Shown: positions 14,446 to 60,178 of the stretch, one piece after another
Layout: each line of letters begins with the position of its first letter
How positions within the stretch are numbered: position 1 is the stretch's first letter
Assembly: GCA_028709465.1 (NCBI GenBank)
Contig: JAQVWY010000006.1
Span: 4,536 to 68,535 of the forward strand
Reading direction: 5' to 3'
From: Tissierellia bacterium
Lineage (GTDB): Bacteria > Bacillota > Clostridia > Tissierellales > Sedimentibacteraceae
DNA length: 64,000 bases
Notes under the pieces: model-generated
The model's input: only the letters and a program-made list of their open reading frames with translations
What the model was told of the DNA's origin: nothing
Database searches by the model: none
Made by a program: the position numbers and the translations under genes

Positions 14446-15897
14446 TTATAAAGGTTCAGTCCTGTAATAATTCATAAACCTTTGTTCTCTATAAATTCTA
14501 TACAATTCATTCCATGTAACTTCGTTAACAATTCCAGTTGGCTCAAGTCCGACCATATTTTGAAAAGCAATTACTGCTTTTTCTGTTTCCTCTCCAAAAA
14601 CACCTTGTTCGCTTATGGGAGGAATAGATGGTATTACTAAAGAAAGATATGATAGCATTTCCTGAATAATGAAAATTTCTGGCTGTTCTATTCCTTGTCC
14701 TTTCATATATTCCTTGCCGGGGTATCTAAAACGGGGAAGATAAACTTCTTGCGGAGGCAATGTATTAAATATACCCAAAATTGTTCTAAACAATAGATCC
14801 CAGGTTTCCTCATCGACTATTCCTGTAATTGGCAATCCCATTATTTTTTGAAATTCTATAACCGCAGCTCTTGTTTGCGGGTTGAATATGCCCGTATATT
14901 CAATATTAGGAATACCTTCATAATAATTAGATAAAACATCTAAAAAATATTGCAATATTTCTATTCTTGGACGAATGTCTCCCTGTAGTAAGGTTCCTCT
15001 TGTTACCTCTAATATTTCTTCATATATTGAACCAGGAACGCTTAATTCTGCTAATTTTGACACAGCGACAAAGATTTGTCTAATTTTATAAAATGTGCCT
15101 TTATCTATAATGCCAGTTACAGGCAAGTTAAAGGCTCTTTGAAATTCTCTTACAGCCTTTTCAGTTGATTCTCCATAATAACCGTCTGCATTTGTTATCT
15201 CCGGTATAGCAGGGTAGTTTTTTGCTATTCTGTTTAATCCTAATTGTTGCCTTAATATAATTATGCTGGAATCACCAGGTTTAAGGGGTTCCCCAGGATA
15301 AGATAACCCGATTCCGCCAACAGGCGCATCTTTAACTATTGATATATCTTCACCATAATAATATTTTAATATATCAATAGGGGAATATCCATTATTTGCT
15401 AAATCAACAGTTCCCCACTGATACATTCCTTCACATTGGGATATTCTACCATCACAGAAGGTTGTAAAGAGAGGTATTACTTGATTATCTCTTATAATAT
15501 AATCATTAAATAAATTGTCTACAATTTCAGATATGTTATTATATATACCCCTATCCTTAACATATGCCTGATCGAACTGTGGTGAATTTGTAATATCAAA
15601 GTCATATCCTCTTGCTCTATACCACTGAAGTGTAACTCTATTTAAAGCAACAGAAACTATAGCGTAAACATTTGCTATTAATGCATTTTCAGGCCATGTA
15701 GGGTAAAGTTCTGAAGAAGCAACATTTTTTATATAGTCAATAAACGGTACTGTTACATTTTCGGCTACCTCATCAGGACGACCTAAATGTACTGTTATAT
15801 TTTCTGGAACTGTAACAAAAGCCGTAGGAGGTCCGCCTGGTATTGTAATTTGTTCGTTTATGTTTACATTATTATTTAAATAATTTGTTTTAAACAT
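14446..15897 (-). CDS. SpoIID/SleC-like domain protein with three peptidoglycan-binding (PG_binding_1) repeats; possible cortex or cell-wall lytic enzyme
   Basis: Three repeats of the type FQ...LP.TGI.D..T. Start moved to MFKTN, which has an aaggag RBS. The N-terminal domain resembles SpoIID-like lytic domains by my reading only. Confidence 0.6.
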   Translation of the reverse strand: MFKTNYLNNNVNINEQITIPGGPPTAFVTVPENITVHLGRPDEVAENVTVPFIDYIKNVASSELYPTWPENALIANVYAIVSVALNRVTLQWYRARGYDFDITNSPQFDQAYVKDRGIYNNISEIVDNLFNDYIIRDNQVIPLFTTFCDGRISQCEGMYQWGTVDLANNGYSPIDILKYYYGEDISIVKDAPVGGIGLSYPGEPLKPGDSSIIILRQQLGLNRIAKNYPAIPEITNADGYYGESTEKAVREFQRAFNLPVTGIIDKGTFYKIRQIFVAVSKLAELSVPGSIYEEILEVTRGTLLQGDIRPRIEILQYFLDVLSNYYEGIPNIEYTGIFNPQTRAAVIEFQKIMGLPITGIVDEETWDLLFRTILGIFNTLPPQEVYLPRFRYPGKEYMKGQGIEQPEIFIIQEMLSYLSLVIPSIPPISEQGVFGEETEKAVIAFQNMVGLEPTGIVNEVTWNELYRIYREQRFMNYYRTEPL

Positions 15898-16168
15898 ATT
15901 ATTCTCCTTAAAAGTTACATTTATCATTTATAGTAATTGTTACACATAAAATCATTTCTTAACATGAATGTTATTTATATTATATGTTAAAAAAGATATA
16001 TTGCCATGTAGTTTTGAGTTTTATTATTTGTAATAGAATTACTTAGCTTGACATTTCAGATTGAATCAAATAAAATTGGTAGACCAAGAAAATATAGATC
16101 TAAATGTAAGGGGTTTTTCTTTTTTCTTTATAAATTTTATGGTATAATTAATATTATATTAATTTGTT

Positions 16169-52260: not shown

Positions 52261-52686
52261 ATGAATTTACTTACACAGATATGGATTATAATATTATCAG
52301 TCAGCATTATAGTTTACTTATTTGAAAAGATCCGCAAACAAAAATATAGTGTAAAATTTTCAATGCCTTGGTTTTTTGCATTTTTAATAGTTATAATATT
52401 AGCTATTTTCCCAATTTTAATTGATAAAATAGCTTTAGTATTAGGAATTAAGGAGCCAACAAATGCAATATTTTTTATTGCTATATGTATTCTTGTAAAT
52501 AATATTATTAATCTATCTTTTTCAACTTCTCATGCTAAAAAGCAATCTATAAGAATGGCACAAGAAATTGCTTTGTTAAAGAAAACTATTTATATGTTAA
52601 ATGATGAACTTAATGATAAATTTAAATTATCACAGGAATTGGCATTGCTAGGAACGGATATAACGAATAAAAATAATGATAAATAA
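52261..52686 (+). CDS. DUF2304-family small membrane protein
   Basis: Three to four TM helices plus a C-terminal coiled segment. Pattern R..K.S..FS..W recalled from DUF2304. Confidence 0.55.
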   Translation: MNLLTQIWIIILSVSIIVYLFEKIRKQKYSVKFSMPWFFAFLIVIILAIFPILIDKIALVLGIKEPTNAIFFIAICILVNNIINLSFSTSHAKKQSIRMAQEIALLKKTIYMLNDELNDKFKLSQELALLGTDITNKNNDK

Positions 52687-52699
52687 TAAGGGACAATTT

Positions 52700-54508
52700 A
52701 TGAAATTTTCAATAAATAAATTAACAGGATTTTTAATTTGGGTTTTATTTTCAAATATATTGATTTATACATCTTTTTATTACAATTGGAAATTGCAACT
52801 TAATAACAATAGTATGCTCATAATTACATTTATTATATTAATAATAATTATAAGTATCATTTGGCTGTACATAAACAAAAATACTATAGCTTGGGTTACA
52901 TTAAATTTAATGAAATCAGGACCGGTTATTTATATATTAACTTTTTTCTGGGCAATAATAATAAGCTTTTTTTATTTTGGGAAAAGCTTCATGTATGAAA
53001 AAACAGGTTATTGGTTGACATTTGAGAAATTGCATTATTTTTTATTATTATGTATACCAGTATATATTTATATTGTATTATCTTTTAGCATACTAGATAT
53101 ATTTAAAGTAATTATATATAAAGATGATAATACGTCAAACAAAATTCAACATTTAAGTTATAAATATCATTTTATTATTTTATTTGCTATTCAAGTAATA
53201 ATATTGGGGATTTATTTTTGTGGACTCAATCCTGGAAATATGTCTTATGATACATATAATCAGGTGAGTCAACTTAAAGGTAATATTCCATTTAATACAT
53301 GGCATCCCATTGGGCATACTTTGTTTATTGGACTTTTATTAAAAATTTGGAGTAATTATGCAGTTATTTCAATTTTTCAAATATTATTCTTTGCTTTAGT
53401 TACCTCCATGTTTTATACAACTTTAATTAAAAAAGATGTTAAATGGCAATTAATATATTTTACAGCATTAATAATGAGCGCAATACCTTCAACGGGAGTG
53501 AATGTAGTGACTCAGTGGAAGGATATACCATTTACTGTTGGACTTCTGTGGGGCACATTTATTTTGTTTAAAATGTGTTTAGTTAAAGACTATTTTAAAA
53601 ATATAGCACACATTTTTGAATTTGTTATATGTTTGTTATCCATAACACTTTTCCGTTTTAATGGAATACTTGCCTTTATATTAATGCTTATTATTGCTTT
53701 AATATATGTAGTTACAAGTCACAACAAAATTCAAATTAGAAATTACTGTATTTCAACTGCTATAATATTAGCAATGATATTATTAATTAATAACATCATC
53801 CCTAATAAACTTAATGCTAATCCCAATCCACCAGGTATGAAGCTTCGTCCCATATATCAAGGATTAGCAGCTTTATATGTTAAAGGAGAAGAGGAGGATG
53901 TAGTTATTGAAAGCAGAAAACTTATTGAATCAGTTTCTACACCAAAACAAATGACAGATTATTATAACCCATACTTTGCAGACACAATTTCTAGCAATAC
54001 ACCACAATTTTTGAACAATCTATCTAAAATATCTACTAAAGATGCTTTGAAAATGTATATTGAAGCTGCAATTATGCATCCAGAGGTAATAATTGGAGAT
54101 AAGTTTAATCTTGCAACTACCATGTGGTCTGTAACTAAAGATCCATTAAGTTATAACAATGCATATACTACAATAATACAGAAGGAAATGATTGAAGAAT
54201 TTGAAGTGCACAGGATAAACAATAAAATAACAACTGCAGTTGAAGAATTTGCAAAAGATACTTATCATGAGAATTATTTATTAAATACTTTGGTATGGCG
54301 ACCGGGTTTTTATCTTTCACTGGAGCTAATACTATTACTTTATTTAATTATTCATAAAGATAAAAGAAATATTCTGTTTATACCTCTCCTATGTAATGCA
54401 TTTATTGTATTTTTAACGATGCCAGCACAGGATTACAGATATTTGTGGTTTATATCATTAATATTTCCGTTTATAGTGCTAGCAAGTTCAGTTAAATTAC
54501 CAGAGTAG
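52700..54508 (+). CDS. Large polytopic membrane protein, GT-C-like glycosyltransferase candidate (DUF6020-like)
   Basis: About 600 aa, more than 10 predicted TM helices, with a ~180-aa hydrophilic domain near the C-terminus. An alternative start lies at 52676. Confidence 0.45.
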   Translation: MKFSINKLTGFLIWVLFSNILIYTSFYYNWKLQLNNNSMLIITFIILIIIISIIWLYINKNTIAWVTLNLMKSGPVIYILTFFWAIIISFFYFGKSFMYEKTGYWLTFEKLHYFLLLCIPVYIYIVLSFSILDIFKVIIYKDDNTSNKIQHLSYKYHFIILFAIQVIILGIYFCGLNPGNMSYDTYNQVSQLKGNIPFNTWHPIGHTLFIGLLLKIWSNYAVISIFQILFFALVTSMFYTTLIKKDVKWQLIYFTALIMSAIPSTGVNVVTQWKDIPFTVGLLWGTFILFKMCLVKDYFKNIAHIFEFVICLLSITLFRFNGILAFILMLIIALIYVVTSHNKIQIRNYCISTAIILAMILLINNIIPNKLNANPNPPGMKLRPIYQGLAALYVKGEEEDVVIESRKLIESVSTPKQMTDYYNPYFADTISSNTPQFLNNLSKISTKDALKMYIEAAIMHPEVIIGDKFNLATTMWSVTKDPLSYNNAYTTIIQKEMIEEFEVHRINNKITTAVEEFAKDTYHENYLLNTLVWRPGFYLSLELILLLYLIIHKDKRNILFIPLLCNAFIVFLTMPAQDYRYLWFISLIFPFIVLASSVKLPE

Positions 54509-54516
54509 GGAGGGGA

Positions 54517-54864
54517 ATGAATTTGTTTAATTTTATATTATATATATTATTAACTGCTATGGGACTTTTTATGATGAAGTTATCAGGTCAGCCTATCGAG
54601 CTTGGGTTAAAAGAAGGAGTTTTTTTCTTAAATATAAGTTCTAAAATGGTGTTGGCTTTAATATTTTATGCATGCAGTTTTCTACTGTGGACAGGAATAG
54701 TAGCAAAAAACGATTTAAGTTTCATCGTACCATTTTCATCCGCCATAGTGAATGTAATATCCGTTTGCTTGGGAATAATTATATTCAATGAATCTACAAA
54801 CATTTATAAGTTTATTGGCATAGGAATGGCAATAGTTGGTGTAATTCTAATGAATTATAAATAA
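54517..54864 (+). CDS. Four-TM SMR/EamA-like small transporter (ArnE/ArnF-like flippase subunit candidate)
   Basis: 115 aa, four hydrophobic helices. gggagggg RBS. Confidence 0.5.
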   Translation: MNLFNFILYILLTAMGLFMMKLSGQPIELGLKEGVFFLNISSKMVLALIFYACSFLLWTGIVAKNDLSFIVPFSSAIVNVISVCLGIIIFNESTNIYKFIGIGMAIVGVILMNYK

Positions 54865-55867: not shown

Positions 55868-55994
55868 GCAATCATATATATTTTTGTTCTATCAGAAAGT
55901 TGGTTACAATTAAAATAAAACCACAAGACTATTGGTTTGTCAATGGTTTTGTGGTATAAATAAATTAAAAAAGTTACGATATGCTGATAATCAT

Positions 55995-57164
55995 TTACTC
56001 GAATGTTTTAATAAGATTATTAAACTTTTTACATATTTTCTTTTTATTACATTTATTATCATTACATATAACAGAGTTGCTTTCACATGAATTTTTGTTT
56101 TCTCTCCCTATATTTAAGTTTAATAAAAGTTCAGCTAAAATACAAGGTATACAATTTTTGAAGTATACTGATTTATAAATTTTCTCGTTATCAGATATTA
56201 TATTTAATTTAGTATATTCATCACTAATTAATGTCGCAAGTTCAAATTCTTCGGTGAATGTATGAGATTGAATATGTGATATATAATCTATAATTGTTTC
56301 TATGTCACATGGACTGAAACTAACTATTTTTAATAATTTTATTGTTTCTACTAGTTTATTCTCAAGAATTTTCTTTTTTTCACATATTATATCAATAATA
56401 TCTGTTAGTAAACAGTCTAGTACATTTAACTCTTCATCTGATAAACACATTTTTAAAGCTTTTCTAATTTTAACACTTTCACCATAAATTAACTTGGCTA
56501 ATCCTTTTTCTTCATTAAAAATAGATTTAATAAGTTCTTTTATGGTACAAAGTAAATTCTTTTTAATTTGAATAAAAATATCTAAATCAGAACATTTTAT
56601 AAATTCAATAATATTAATGGCTGTTTTTAATTTTCTTAAAAGAATCATATTTTTTTCAATTATAACTTTCATTAGTGTTATAATTATATTATTTACTTGC
56701 TTAATTTCATCAAAAGAACAATGGAATTTTACATTTATTAAACCTTCTCCTAGTGCATCAATTAAGCAGCCTAAAGAATACTCTTCAGAAGCAATGCTTT
56801 TTAAAATAGAATTTAAATTGTTTAGGAGTTCATATTGATTATTATAGTCTAAACATTGTATTCCTTCCTTTTTTATGAAGTTAAGAGTTTCTCTTAATTT
56901 AACCTCTAATATGTTGTTTTTATTTAAAATGGTTTTCAGCGAACGAATTATGCTTTGAGTGACAATAACATATTCACTAGCAGTTAAGCATGAATATGTT
57001 ATACTGTATAAAATATTAGCTTCAGCTTGTATTAAAGCTGAAAGTGCACATTCTTCATCAGCAACTGATTTAACTATTGAAATAGCATTACTAGGAATAC
57101 CTTTAGTAATGAGTAAATTTCCATCACTATTTTTATTATTAATATCATTATTTGACATTGTCAT
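55995..57164 (-). CDS. Uncharacterised four-repeat helical protein, Cys-rich paralog (389 aa)
   Basis: Four ~87-91-aa repeats, each with an S(I/V)AxEExxLxxLI helix and a KNxIL..KL helix. EE motifs at aa 37, 127, 218, 305. 17 Cys, with a clustered C-terminal CESNSVICNDNKCNKKKICKK. No signal peptide seen. Confidence 0.8.
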   Translation of the reverse strand: MTMSNNDINNKNSDGNLLITKGIPSNAISIVKSVADEECALSALIQAEANILYSITYSCLTASEYVIVTQSIIRSLKTILNKNNILEVKLRETLNFIKKEGIQCLDYNNQYELLNNLNSILKSIASEEYSLGCLIDALGEGLINVKFHCSFDEIKQVNNIIITLMKVIIEKNMILLRKLKTAINIIEFIKCSDLDIFIQIKKNLLCTIKELIKSIFNEEKGLAKLIYGESVKIRKALKMCLSDEELNVLDCLLTDIIDIICEKKKILENKLVETIKLLKIVSFSPCDIETIIDYISHIQSHTFTEEFELATLISDEYTKLNIISDNEKIYKSVYFKNCIPCILAELLLNLNIGRENKNSCESNSVICNDNKCNKKKICKKFNNLIKTFE

Positions 57165-57321
57165 TATTACTCACATTCCTTTATAATTTTTGTTACATAA
57201 ATAATCATTTATAGCATGTATAATATTTTATACAGACAAACTTTTATTGTTACATAATATCTAAAAAATATTAGTAAAACCAATCAAAAATATGATCTTT
57301 ATACTTTGTTAAATTTACAAT

Positions 57322-57345
57322 ATAGGCCCACATTTGTGAGCCTAT
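57322..57345 (-). terminator. Hairpin downstream of 57370-58491
   Basis: taggcccaca / tgtgagccta arms with one mismatch. Confidence 0.45.
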
Positions 57346-57369
57346 TGTTTTGTTGAAAATTATTAATAT

Positions 57370-58491
57370 TTATAGTGCTAGTATAAAATTAATAACATCT
57401 AAATTTTTTTGTTCCAATATCATATTTTTCAATGTGATTGATTCCAATAAAGTTGTAGCACTATCATTTGCAGCAACTAAGTTGTCAATGTTTCCTGGTG
57501 TTAAATTAGCAACATCATTTATTTTTAATGCTTCATTGTTAATAAGTGTTGCAAGTGCGAATTCCTCATTAGCTATAGACTGTTGAAGGTTAGATAATGC
57601 TACTGCGAATACTGCCAATTGTGCTGGAGTAAATCCTAATGAAAGCAATGCAAGTATTTCTTCAAGTTTAGCTTCTAAAATCATATTTTTCTGAACAATT
57701 ACATCAATAACAGATGTAATTGTATCATTGAATGCAATTAAAGAAGGCACTCCAGCCGCTGTAGTTGTTAAAATAACTGCTCTGTTTAATTTAGCTGCTT
57801 CAGCTTCAATCAAGAGTGCCAAACCATTTTCTTCAACTGTTATTGAATTTATTAAATTTGTTATGGCAGCTATTACAGCTGCAACCTGTTCAGCAGTTGG
57901 AGTAGGGAAAGCTGTAGAATTATTTACAATAAATCTAATAAGTCTTCTTAATTTACTTAATAGTACAAGATTCTTTTCAGTTATTACTCTCAAAAGCCCA
58001 ATAACAATTTCATCAACATCCTGTAATTGTACTAAAGAAAGAGTAGGCGCAAGTAATCTAACAACATTACCTAATGCACCAATTAAATTACCTAACGCAT
58101 TTTCTTCGTTTGCTATTCTATTAAGAATTGCAGTTAAGTTAGTTACTAATAAAGGTGTTATAGTAAAATTTTCTCTGTCAATATAGTTTAAAGTTTCAGT
58201 TAACTTTGCTTCCAAAACAGTGTTTTTTAATAATACGGATTTCATTGTTCTTGTTATGCTTTGACTTAATTCTGTAAAATTAGCATAAGTTAAAGCAGCA
58301 CCAGTTAATAAGTTTAATTTATCTGCCTCTTCTTGTATAATAGCTGAAAGCGCATTTTCTTCTGCTGCAACAGAACCAATTATATTAAATGCTCCAGCTG
58401 TATTTAAACCTGGAACTTGTTGTAAAACAGCATCATTTTGTGGACTCACATTTTGTATATTTTCATTATTAATATTTAAAAAACTTGCCAT
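57370..58491 (-). CDS. Uncharacterised four-repeat helical protein, Cys-free paralog (373 aa)
   Basis: Same architecture as 55995-57164. EE motifs at aa 44, 129, 220, 309 and KN.(I/V)L motifs at aa 89, 173, 268, 355. No Cys, Trp or His by my reading. Ala/Leu/Asn/Thr rich, no signal peptide. Confidence 0.8.
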   Translation of the reverse strand: MASFLNINNENIQNVSPQNDAVLQQVPGLNTAGAFNIIGSVAAEENALSAIIQEEADKLNLLTGAALTYANFTELSQSITRTMKSVLLKNTVLEAKLTETLNYIDRENFTITPLLVTNLTAILNRIANEENALGNLIGALGNVVRLLAPTLSLVQLQDVDEIVIGLLRVITEKNLVLLSKLRRLIRFIVNNSTAFPTPTAEQVAAVIAAITNLINSITVEENGLALLIEAEAAKLNRAVILTTTAAGVPSLIAFNDTITSVIDVIVQKNMILEAKLEEILALLSLGFTPAQLAVFAVALSNLQQSIANEEFALATLINNEALKINDVANLTPGNIDNLVAANDSATTLLESITLKNMILEQKNLDVINFILAL

Positions 58492-59175
58492 AATTTTCTC
58501 ACATTCCTTTATAAATTATTGATAACATACTTATTAATTGAAATTGAATATTAATAAGCATGTACAATAATAATTATATTCTTATGGACAAAATGTGTTA
58601 CAAAATTAATTGCTTGTATATTAGCAGAAATTTTTATTATTATAATCTAACTTAGTTAGATATACTTTGTAAAATTAGATAAATTTATTGAATATAATGT
58701 TAAAAAATGTTAAAATGAGAATATTATTTTAAAGTCAGTTTTTATAATAACTGGAGGTTACTTCTAAATGGAAAATATAAAGAAGTATAAAATGACAATT
58801 ACAGGTGAAATAGATAAAAATGAGAATAAAGAAGACTTATAAATTGTTTAAGTACAAGTATAAATCATATAAAATATGATTTAATTAACTAGGCAATAAA
58901 AAAAAAAGTAAGAAATATATCAACAGTTGCATGAATCAAATAGTTGAGAGTCTTAGGGAGTCATAATAATACTAAAAACGCATGTGATTTTTATTAATAG
59001 CATGTGTTTTTATTTGCAGGTATTGTTGTTAAACAAATTGTTATAAAAATATCTGTAATATTTTAGGTTGGATTCTAAAGTTAACCCTTTAAAAAATTTT
59101 TAGGTGATCTTTTTATTATTATTGCAGTACTTAATAAAAATTATTCGTTATTATTATAAAGGGAGGAGGCGAGAC

Positions 59176-59730
59176 ATGGAAACTGAAAATCATTTAATTG
59201 AAAAAGCAGCATTAGGCGACGAGGATTCATTTTCAATTTTGATTGATAGTTACAAGAATTATGTATTTGCTATTATTCTAAATTTTATTAAAGATTATAA
59301 TGAAGTAGAAAATGTTGCACAGGAAGTTTTTTTTCAAATATATGTCTCCCTACCAAAATATGACCAAAAAAATTTTAAGGCTTGGATAGGTCGTATCACA
59401 ACTAATAAATCAATAGATTGGTTAAGAATGAAAAAATCTAAATTCAAGGATGAAGTATTAGACCAATTTGCAGATAATATTAGCATGGACCAAAAATATA
59501 ATCCAGAAATACTTATTATAGAGAAAGATAAAAAAGAGAAATTAACAAGAACATTGAACAGTATTCCAGATATTTACAGAGTTGTTTTAGAGAAATTTTA
59601 TTTTCTGGGGAAATCCTATGAGCTAATAGCTAAAGAAGAGAATGTACCCATAAAGACAATTGCATCTAGATTATATAGAGCAAAGATATTATTAAGAGAG
59701 AAGTGGAGGTGCGGAGATGAATCATTATGA
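59176..59730 (+). CDS. ECF-type RNA polymerase sigma factor
   Basis: gggaggagg RBS. Region 2 (AQEVFFQIY, W...I..N..IDWLR) and region 4 (SYELIAKEENVPIKTIASRLYRA). Confidence 0.85.
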   Translation: METENHLIEKAALGDEDSFSILIDSYKNYVFAIILNFIKDYNEVENVAQEVFFQIYVSLPKYDQKNFKAWIGRITTNKSIDWLRMKKSKFKDEVLDQFADNISMDQKYNPEILIIEKDKKEKLTRTLNSIPDIYRVVLEKFYFLGKSYELIAKEENVPIKTIASRLYRAKILLREKWRCGDESL

Positions 59731-60178
59731 TTATGTAGAATGGTTACTATATAAAAATAAAACACTAACAAATTCTAAAATAAAAGAAATGCAAGAACAT
59801 TTATATAATTGTGAAACTTGTATGGATACATTCCTCTCTTTAGTAGATGAGCAAGAAGAAGAACTTGTTGGAATAATTGTTCCATCAAATTTTGCTTCAA
59901 AAGTATTAGAAAATATCTCCCTAAATAAGATAAGAGATATTAAGCTTAGAAAAGTAAAAAAATCAGTTAATTATCAATTTGGATATTATGTTGCAGTTGC
60001 ATCTGTAACAATATTTTTAACATTAGGTGGATTTTACACTAATTTAGTGGATTCAGTGCCTAGAATAACTGCATCAATACAAGAAGTTGAAATACGGCAA
60101 AATTTAATAGCTGACTTTTCAAACAGGATTATAAATTCAACGTCAAATTTATTGATGAGTATTGAAAAAAATAAATAA
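59717..60178 (+). CDS. Anti-sigma factor with zinc-finger (ZAS-like HxxxCxxC) N-domain and one TM helix
   Basis: HLYNCETC motif. Overlaps the sigma gene by 14 nt. TM segment YYVAVASVTIFLTLGGFY. Confidence 0.7.
   Translation: MNHYDYVEWLLYKNKTLTNSKIKEMQEHLYNCETCMDTFLSLVDEQEEELVGIIVPSNFASKVLENISLNKIRDIKLRKVKKSVNYQFGYYVAVASVTIFLTLGGFYTNLVDSVPRITASIQEVEIRQNLIADFSNRIINSTSNLLMSIEKNK

Follow-up and report, generated by a model that had tools for sequence, protein, structure and literature searches.

What do two adjacent genes encode when their products share one repeat plan, match nothing in a first family scan and differ sharply in whether they contain cysteine? The question is raised by a 64,000-nucleotide stretch of a Tissierellia bacterium genome (contig JAQVWY010000006.1, positions 4,536 to 68,535; "the window" below), in which two adjacent, collinear minus-strand open reading frames (ORFs), here called genes A and B, encode proteins of 373 and 389 amino acids (aa):

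57370-58491, minus strand: gene A, ORF of 373 aa; Cys-free protein with four A_ENA domains, the proposed major subunit
55995-57164, minus strand: gene B, ORF of 389 aa; Cys-rich paralog with four A_ENA domains, a proposed cap, anchor or disulfide-crosslinking variant

An initial annotation, made from the sequence of the window, placed the ORFs at exactly these positions and presented the pair as an undescribed system of no family that could be named. We found instead that each of the eight repeats shares homology with A-ENA, the alpha-helical subunit of an endospore appendage in B. thuringiensis israelensis (Bti) (PMC13111695). The claim of a family without a name thus fails, since PF26595 covers all homologs and a structure has been solved (9ihh). 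What is new here is the presence of four tandem A_ENA domains per protein and the conserved pairing of a Cys-free with a Cys-rich gene. Protein A has 0 Cys, 0 Trp, and 0 His, and protein B has 17 Cys, 0 Trp, and 3 His, counts that agree with the annotated absence of all three residues from A and with the 17 annotated Cys of B. The two proteins are 36% identical across 333 aa (blastp, E 5e-53).

Membership in the A_ENA family

Searches with phmmer returned a single PDB match, chain 9ihh_A ("Ex vivo spore-silk A-ENA fibers"), with E values of 2e-6 for A and 0.0026 for B. A profile built from the eight repeats, of the kind that the initial annotation had proposed, recovered the same structure from the PDB (E 5.9e-14), the next PDB match being at 0.77, and A-ENA as a lone query recognizes seven of the eight isolated repeats. 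Precomputed assignments point the same way: PF26595, named A_ENA in gene tables, is present on 67/67 homologs of A and 39/39 homologs of B, 100%-identical database entries included, and A itself is 100% identical to a protein with PF26595 from a Tissierellia metagenome-assembled genome (MAG). Our scans of A and B against Pfam, NCBIfam, and PHROGs gave nothing meaningful, but the Pfam version used lacks PF26595, and A-ENA itself and a Neobacillus homolog also score nothing in it. Hence, the empty scan is explained by a Pfam version that predates PF26595 and not by the novelty of the family.

A-ENA was described in March 2026 (Sleutel, Sogues & Remaut, Nat Commun 2026; PMC13111695), and our literature search found no other A-ENA paper. 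The protein has 101 aa, folds as an alpha-helical hairpin that carries an N-terminal lock, and forms two parallel cross-alpha protofilaments, in which each subunit is joined to its neighbors via ten autocatalytic intermolecular isopeptide bonds (PMC13111695). Its expression is confined to sporulating cells. Fibers form without the help of accessory factors, even in E. coli, and the resulting "sporesilk" is an ultra-stable, self-crosslinking spore fiber (PMC13111695). The annotation had suggested building blocks of a spore coat, exosporium or appendage. This was right in direction, since the repeats are homologous to an endospore-appendage protein.

The main text of the A-ENA paper gives single-domain proteins, or one domain with a passenger, as architectures and mentions no tandem arrays. 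For example, A-BclA and similar proteins (PMC13111695) are, like A and B, multidomain proteins with A-ENA, presumably for integration into A-ENA fibers. A-BclA has one N-terminal A-ENA, a collagen-like region and C1q, and other passenger types exist. In A and B, in contrast, the extra domains are all A-ENA, with no passenger save the short Cys/Lys tail of B. The tandem form is an architectural variant and not grounds for exclusion from the A_ENA family.

Four repeats that predate the gene duplication

Each protein had been annotated as four repeats of about 85-91 aa, a reading tied to their statistical self-alignment. Self-comparison by blastp gave the identity high-scoring segment pair (HSP) only, and the repeats were assessed by off-register HSPs of A against B and by single-sequence, all-versus-all phmmer searches of the isolated repeats. 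They are listed here with their A-ENA-like residues, discussed in the next section:

58405-58491, minus strand: N-terminal segment of A (aa 1-29); conserved M-x-N start, predicted local distance difference test (pLDDT) below 50 for aa 1-27
58150-58404, minus strand: A repeat 1 (aa 30-114), with E44/E45, E55, K58, K89/N90, E94, and K96
57877-58149, minus strand: A repeat 2 (aa 115-205), with E129/E130, K173/N174, and K180, and without K42 and E39 equivalents
57610-57876, minus strand: A repeat 3 (aa 206-294), with E220/E221, E231, K234, N255, K268/N269, E273, and K275
57373-57609, minus strand: A repeat 4 (aa 295-373), with E309/E310, E320, K323, N342, K355/N356, and K362
56829-57098, minus strand: B repeat 1 (aa 23-112), with E37/E38, K82/N83, E87, and K89; K42 equivalent lost (Ile)
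56556-56828, minus strand: B repeat 2 (aa 113-203), with E127/E128, K171/N172, and K178
56295-56555, minus strand: B repeat 3 (aa 204-290), with E218/E219, K232, K263, E268, and K270; Lys, not Asn, at position 78
56115-56294, minus strand: B repeat 4 (aa 291-350), first helix intact (E305/E306), second degenerate (KNCIPCIL)
55998-56114, minus strand: Cys/Lys-rich C-terminal tail of B (aa 351-389), with C360, C367, C372, and C378; largely disordered in the model

All pairwise matches within the set A1-A4 and B1-B3 are significant (E 1e-4 to 2e-20), and repeats 1-2 of B also align off register with repeats 3-4 of A (E 7e-08), so that the structural reading as four repeats stands. B4 is weak in the all-versus-all comparison because only its first helix is retained. 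In B, the best match of each A repeat is the positionally equivalent one (A1-B1 2e-20, A2-B2 1e-14, A3-B3 1e-12, and A4-B4 8e-06). Therefore, the four-repeat plan predates the gene duplication, as the annotation had argued. The "EE" motif starts at aa 44, 129, 220, and 309 of A and at aa 37, 127, 218, and 305 of B, as annotated, and the shared variant described for repeat 2 is also there in both proteins (ALGN / ALGEG replacing AEAxK). The best single match to A-ENA is A repeat 3. The A-type orthologs keep M1 and N3 nearly invariant, and the N-terminal segment of A is possibly the counterpart of the A-ENA N-terminal lock.

Residues of the isopeptide chemistry

The alignment of the eight repeats to A-ENA and A-ENA1 from pBtoxis gives the annotated motifs a meaning. 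The "EE" motif corresponds to the catalytic E28 and the acceptor E29 of A-ENA, and the motif KNx(I/V)LxxKL to the donor K77, the acceptor position 78 (Asn here, Glu in A-ENA), position 82, and the donor K84. The isopeptide bonds (IPBs) of A-ENA link the free Gly2 amine to Q44 of subunit i-5 with E41 as catalyst (IPB1), K42 to N64 with E39 (IPB2), K84 to E29 with E28 (IPB3), and K77 to E78 with E28 (IPB4); IPB5 is an inter-protofilament bond of K76 to Q82, catalyzed by E86, that supports the double-helical, two-protofilament fiber (PMC13111695). In A and B, these positions are retained as follows:

E28, E29, and K84 (catalyst, acceptor, and donor): 8/8 repeats
K77 (donor): 7/8 repeats
Position 78 as Asn (acceptor): 7/8 repeats
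K76 (inter-protofilament donor): 0/8 repeats

Across 27 A-type orthologs, E28, E29, K77, N78, and K84 are invariant in repeats 1 to 4 (R1-R4), with the exceptions of E29 in R2 and K84 in R3 (26/27). Residue conservation thus suggests that the IPB3 and IPB4 triads are retained, and Asn at position 78, though not the Glu of A-ENA, is by its chemistry a competent acceptor. If this holds, the pair would resemble Gram-positive pilins (e.g., Spy0128, cited in PMC13111695), which have Glu-catalyzed intramolecular Lys-Asn bonds. Such pilins differ in that they consist of Ig-like beta domains and are polymerized by sortases, whereas A and B are all-alpha and their polymerization would be autocatalytic. 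The IPB2 triad is complete at three of the four predicted interfaces of the A-type, with both sides lost at the R2>R1 interface, and is largely lost in R1 and R4 of the B-type. The IPB5 donor is absent: no repeat in any of the groups has Lys at position 76 (L/E/Q/L in A and Q/E/D/L in B). IPB5 is not essential to the family, because recombinant A-ENA1 fibers form without it (PMC13111695). The N-termini (MAS... and MTMSN...) lack the Gly2 donor and an MPxIP motif, and the equivalent of the IPB1 catalyst E41 is retained in repeat 1 only.

The resemblance to A-ENA and A-ENA1 (Q8KNV8 and Q8KNV7) is therefore extensive, but it has clear limits. The hairpin is homologous, with 27-40% identity in 7/8 repeats and 16% for B4, the EE motif is common to both, as are the K77 and K84 donors, and neither system has a signal peptide or linked assembly machinery. 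Both consist of paralogs with separate promoters, one Cys-free and the other Cys-bearing. They differ in that A-ENA is a single 101-aa hairpin, against four hairpins per chain of 373-389 aa here, and has Glu at position 78 instead of Asn. The K76-Q82-E86 set and the Gly2 donor are missing from A and B, and their repeat 2 lacks the IPB2 donor and catalyst. A-ENA1 has two Cys, compared with 17 in B. Finally, an amidase gene lies between the Bti paralogs and is absent here, and the host here is an anaerobic member of the Tissierellia.

Predicted structures

Models were computed with AlphaFold2 using family alignments. The model of A (pLDDT 89.5, predicted template modeling score [pTM] 0.85) has eight helices of 30-42 residues, i.e., four hairpins, with aa 1-27 disordered. 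The model of B (pLDDT 81.9, pTM 0.84) shows three clean hairpins. In its R4 the second helix is broken, and the Cys-rich tail is disordered. The alpha1-loop-alpha2 hairpin of about 85-100 residues that defines the A_ENA fold is present in these models. The predicted fold is hence one of four long helical hairpins, in an overall arrangement that the models place with confidence. The top-ranking Foldseek analogues from the PDB are linear helical-repeat building blocks designed de novo (probability ~1.0, template modeling [TM] scores of 0.33-0.42). Among them, designed twistless or regularized helical repeats (9mg8, 9d01, 8ga7, and 8gel) are likewise linear, extendable hairpin stacks, but they are artificial and unrelated in sequence and match with low TM scores, which makes this an analogy of shape only. 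The A-ENA structure 9ihh is not in the Foldseek top 50 for either model, a probable reason being that a lone hairpin of 101 aa ranks poorly beside global matches.

These models also bear on the alternatives raised in the initial annotation. One of them was a two-component alpha-helical pore-forming toxin, and the pair does consist of adjacent all-alpha proteins of ~370 aa, with Smh, Ahl, MakA, and Hbl among the weak Foldseek matches for A. However, those matches have TM scores of 0.12-0.16 and root mean square deviations of 27-43 Å, and no toxin is listed for B. Furthermore, the proteins lack a signal peptide and any hydrophobic beta-tongue or head region, match no toxin family in Pfam, NCBIfam, or PHROGs, and show clear sequence homology to A-ENA. 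We regard the toxin as effectively refuted. Nothing points to a cytoskeletal scaffold, which was the other suggestion.

Both annotated absences, of a signal peptide and of a transmembrane helix, agree with our results. The N-termini of A and B are polar, without a signal peptide. One 19-aa window of A, aa 279-297 (Kyte-Doolittle 1.98), lies above the usual transmembrane threshold. In the model this is not a transmembrane helix, because it straddles the R3-R4 linker of a confidently modeled stack of helical hairpins.

A proposed assembly

How could such proteins assemble? The reading that we favor, with moderate confidence, is that A and B are pre-concatenated four-subunit blocks of a cross-alpha spore fiber, stapled inside by isopeptide bonds and joined head-to-tail, with B as a cap, anchor or crosslinker. 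We infer spore association, polymerization, and the role of B from sequence comparisons and models. Each protein would fold as a block of protofilament ~4 subunits long, with repeat n stacking on n-1 as subunit i does on i-1. The N-terminal lock, which in A-ENA runs towards lower-numbered subunits (PMC13111695), would have turned into the linker between repeats. Intramolecular isopeptide bonds, both Lys-Glu and Lys-Asn, would staple each repeat to its neighbors. The Cys-free A would be the main building block, the donor face of its repeat 1 (K58, K89, and K96) and the acceptor face of its repeat 4 (E309/E310, N342, and N356) ligating blocks head-to-tail. Up to 11 bonds are predicted per A chain, about 8 of them internal and 3 per junction. 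In the sporulating mother cell, assembly would require no machinery, and the fiber would end up on or around the spore.

The R1 donor and R4 acceptor faces of the A-type have no intramolecular partner, and yet they are conserved in 27/27 orthologs. This argues for head-to-tail intermolecular ligation into a fiber of four-subunit blocks. It also bears on a different possibility, namely that A and B are self-stapled, monomeric or heterodimeric, A_ENA-derived rods of the spore coat or exosporium that do not polymerize and enter the surface through other contacts, e.g., the disulfides of B. Tandem fusion could have replaced polymerization, neither the residues of the inter-protofilament bond nor the N-terminal Gly donor has been kept, and the Cys ladder of B can be likened to Cys-rich coat and exosporium proteins. 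However, unpartnered end faces kept in all orthologs are hard to explain without intermolecular bonding, and the interface without IPB2 has lost both partners, which indicates that unused residues do decay. We therefore consider such rods unlikely.

The order of stacking leaves a trace in the sequences. Among the sequence-interface cases, donor and acceptor co-occur or vanish together in 93% if repeat n donates to n-1, versus 81% for the reverse register. The difference is due to two co-loss events. In the first, the IPB2 donor and catalyst are gone from R2 and the acceptor from R1; this applies to the A-types as well as the B-types, and the Bacillaceae retain both sides. In the second, the IPB4 donor of B-type R4 is deleted and the acceptor in R3 is now Lys. 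As support for the n to n-1 register, these few events are suggestive only. Such co-losses at given interfaces offer a sequence-only readout of residue pairing, and the conservation pattern lets the probable stacking register be read and specific intramolecular and intermolecular isopeptide bonds be predicted.

The Cys-rich paralog raises a further question: what would its role be? The B-type orthologs have 9-23 Cys, with 14-23 in all but one (n=27), and Cys is almost always absent from the A-types. The conserved positions are at the hairpin tips (C59 in 27/27, C149 in 25/27, and C240 in 27/27, plus the R4 loop) and in the linkers (C104 in 26/27, C191/C206, and C286), with further conserved Cys in the tail. 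They would therefore line both edges of the presumed stack. The C-terminal Cys cluster described in the initial annotation exists, but with a spacing of C360-x6-C367-x4-C372-x5-C378 instead of x5/x4/x4. The B-types have also lost the IPB2 donor in R1, and in R4 K77 is deleted and the second helix is degenerate. B would ligate onto A through its R1 donor face, then terminate the stack, presenting a Cys/Lys-rich end for disulfide anchoring or bundling. Most plausibly, then, B caps or anchors the fiber or crosslinks it by disulfides, but this is the weakest step of our proposal and we hold it with low confidence. Two comparisons can be made. In Bti, the minor protein A-ENA1 has Cys at its C-terminus (...CSCRK...) and A-ENA has no Cys, which may be a faint parallel to the contrast between A and B. 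The S-ENA and L-ENA of the B. cereus group (Ena1A/B/C and Ena3A; DUF3992) are, in what the A-ENA paper says of them, also spore-borne, machinery-independent, covalent fibers (PMC13111695), and their Cys crosslinks are a possible analogy for B. They are beta-jellyroll proteins joined by disulfides only and unrelated in sequence, which makes this an analogy and not a homology: A and B, all-alpha in the models, have no DUF3992 match in Pfam and are not jellyroll subunits with an N-terminal Cys connector.

These interpretations should be taken with caution, since several observations weigh against the pre-concatenated fiber. Some two or three evolutionary events underlie the register argument, and the three sequences from Bacillaceae do not tell the two registers apart. 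The linear stack is a prediction from pTM and from Foldseek analogues at TM scores of only 0.33-0.42. The absence of the K76-Q82 bond and of the Gly2 donor implies that the quaternary structure may differ from the double protofilament of A-ENA. A "dead acceptor face" of B holds in most orthologs, where the catalytic E28 of R4 is Gly, but not clearly in the B of the window, which keeps E305/E306. Lastly, the promoters described below fit sigma-A as well as SigK and lack the conserved C of the SigK/SigE -10.

If true, the proposal would have several implications. A natural tandem version would show how intermolecular crosslinks evolve into intramolecular staples and an N-terminal lock into a linker, a new assembly logic among ENAs in which an oligomer of subunits is genetically encoded. 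It would also provide a ready-made, extendable, self-ligating protein block for materials design. The Cys-free/Cys-rich pair suggests a division of labor between the shaft and a cap or anchor. The most complete version of the idea is a pre-polymerized module with internal staples and end-face ligation, whose Cys-rich paralog both terminates the fiber and ties it to the spore via disulfides; we regard this as a tentative possibility, which would give one appendage two orthogonal covalent chemistries.

Distribution and hosts

We identified 15 four-repeat loci in about 185,000 species genomes (one genome per species). They are in Sedimentibacter/Tissierellia MAGs, with A followed by B wherever the contig allows, and in three Bacillaceae with a single four-repeat gene, Neobacillus and Bacillus being among these carriers. 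A profile search of 1.84 billion representatives gave 1,148 family clusters, and the best 150 of these include six with four repeats, one with three, and 15 with two. The four-repeat architecture is thus rare. Metagenomic proteins with two or three tandem A_ENA domains were also observed (P0101-P0108, P0110, P0114, and P0123). In P0106, two A_ENA domains are combined with a C-terminal domain that contains Cys, and in P0123 Cys occurs in the linkers and the tail. Hence, tandemization has occurred at several multiplicities.

All hosts of the four-repeat form are in endospore-forming lineages. Sedimentibacter has been called spore-forming (PMC11239606), and a Spore_YunB gene lies near the A/B pair in S. 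saalensis. The presence of the pair in these organisms would extend A-ENA biology from toxin-bearing bacilli to anaerobic Tissierellia of digesters and sediments, and it would support the functions beyond toxin-crystal retention that were suggested by the authors of the A-ENA work.

Expression signals

Footprinting at 9 loci for A and 11 loci for B, whose spacers are otherwise unalignable, revealed one conserved promoter-like block per gene, in agreement with the annotated separate upstream regions. A hairpin follows each gene:

58557-58601, minus strand: promoter-like block of A, GTAACA-N17-TATAAT (58601-58573), then a GTACATGCT box (58565-58557)
57213-57253, minus strand: promoter-like block of B, GTAACA-N17-TAAAAT (57253-57225), then a TACATGCT box (57220-57213)
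58498-58510, minus strand: shared leader/ribosome-binding site AAAGGAATGTGAG of A, from the footprint
57170-57182, minus strand: shared leader/ribosome-binding site AAAGGAATGTGAG of B, from the footprint
57317-57348, minus strand: hairpin after A, AUAGGCUCAC...GUGGGCCUAU, with a folding free energy of -16 kcal/mol (z -4.1, 0/200 shuffles as good)
55920-55955, minus strand: terminator-like hairpin after B, from folding, followed by a U-tract UUUUAUUUUA

The elements kept across loci are a GTAACA-type -35, a spacing of 17 nt, a -10 of TATAAT/TATTAT for A or TAAAAT for B, and a TACAGGCT box, and the leader consensus of both genes is AAAGGA(A/T)(T/C)GTGAG. In the window, both promoters have TACATGCT as the box that follows the -10 (58557-58565 and 57213-57220), and this box is TACAGGCT at both promoters of all other loci examined. 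From these sequences, such a concerted G-to-T change at two boxes suggests coevolution with a trans-acting factor or gene conversion between the promoters. In B orthologs (L006-L016), ~40-70 nt 5' of the start codons, a perfect inverted repeat of 8 bp, GCCTGTAT-N8-ATACAGGC, surrounds the -10 and looks like a putative operator. In the B promoter of the window (57213-57237), the left arm of the repeat is degenerate (GTCTGTAT / ATACATGC).

The start of gene B is ambiguous, with two in-frame ATGs (MTMSN...), the second at 57158 (interval 57158-57164). Ortholog N-termini are MTMSN/MPMSN or MSN, and the true start may be the second ATG, because many orthologs begin with MSN. The end of the AAAGGAATGTGAG leader of B lies 5 nt upstream of the first ATG and 11 nt upstream of the second. 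The hairpin annotated after A is real, as judged against the 200 shuffles, and orthologous loci keep a hairpin at the same position. A terminator scan missed both 3' hairpins and proposed one inside the coding sequence of B, which we took as chance.

Which sigma factor would read these promoters? In a consensus scan, they match the sigma-70-like consensus at 10/12 (GTAACA-17-TATAAT) and 9/12 (GTAACA-17-TAAAAT) positions. They also read as AC-N16-(A/T)ATAnnnT, reminiscent of SigK, and a-ena of Bti has a SigK site (PMC13111695). Assignments to SigK, SigE, SigF/G, SigH, or sigma-A were all tried, and none is confident from the sequence; a promoter for an extracytoplasmic function (ECF) sigma factor (GAAC...CGTC) was rejected for its wrong spacing (about 26 nt). 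Sporulation-specific expression would follow from the Bti precedent.

The sigma-70-like matches can also be read in favor of a pair unrelated to spores, i.e., a vegetative fiber or scaffold (a biofilm matrix released by lysis, or an intracellular cross-alpha filament) transcribed by sigma-A and controlled by a repressor on the TACAGGCT inverted repeat. The -10s do lack the C of the CATA typical of SigE/SigK, an operator-like inverted repeat brackets the -10 of B, and there are no sporulation genes beside the pair in the window. Yet, the sole characterized relatives are expressed only in sporulating cells (PMC13111695), every four-repeat genome belongs to an endospore-forming lineage, and the lack of a signal peptide fits release through lysis of the mother cell. 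We consider this explanation improbable and retain a spore fiber as the preferred reading.

Genomic context

Around A and B, the window is a plus-strand housekeeping region (pnp ... ftsK/spoIIIE, miaB, pgsA, recA, and rny). The immediate flanks are a nitroreductase gene on one side and an ECF sigma/anti-sigma pair on the other. In S. saalensis, the same A-then-B order is found between a radical-SAM gene and yebC. Since the flanks differ, no accessory genes travel with the pair. This, together with the lack of a signal peptide, fits an accessory-free self-assembly like that of A-ENA. A six-frame search of the 64-kb window found no further A_ENA genes, and there are no toxin genes in the window and no sporulation genes flanking the pair in it.

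The A/B pair is among the very few minus-strand units of an almost all-plus window, and the GC skew is -0.085 at 56-58 kb versus about +0.25 elsewhere in the window. The skew, the strand, and the differing flanks are consistent with a relocated or inserted two-gene module. A 612-bp AT-rich spacer without ORFs (58492-59103) separates gene A from a divergent ECF-type sigma factor gene (59104-59730), and only the ~110 bp of it that are promoter-proximal to gene A are kept in orthologs. Next to the sigma gene are a putative anti-sigma gene without a Pfam match (59717-60178) and, beyond it, membrane proteins (DUF6677 and LiaF-TM-like). Control of A and B by this sigma/anti-sigma pair (59104-60178) was considered and set aside, the neighborhood not being conserved in S. 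saalensis.

Two other regions of the window deserve mention. A 493-aa protein (14446-15927, minus strand) has SleB/peptidoglycan-hydrolase matches in NCBIfam over ~37 aa only (aa 245-282 and 440-477), far below cutoffs; these matches probably stem from peptidoglycan-binding modules that occur repeatedly, rather than from a genuine cortex-lytic enzyme. Immediately upstream of the nitroreductase gene next to B, a plus-strand cluster of three membrane-protein genes (52261-54864) encodes a DUF2304 protein (141 aa), a 610-aa polytopic protein without a Pfam match, and a half-size EamA-like protein of 115 aa, and may be a glycosyl- or lipid-carrier-related module.

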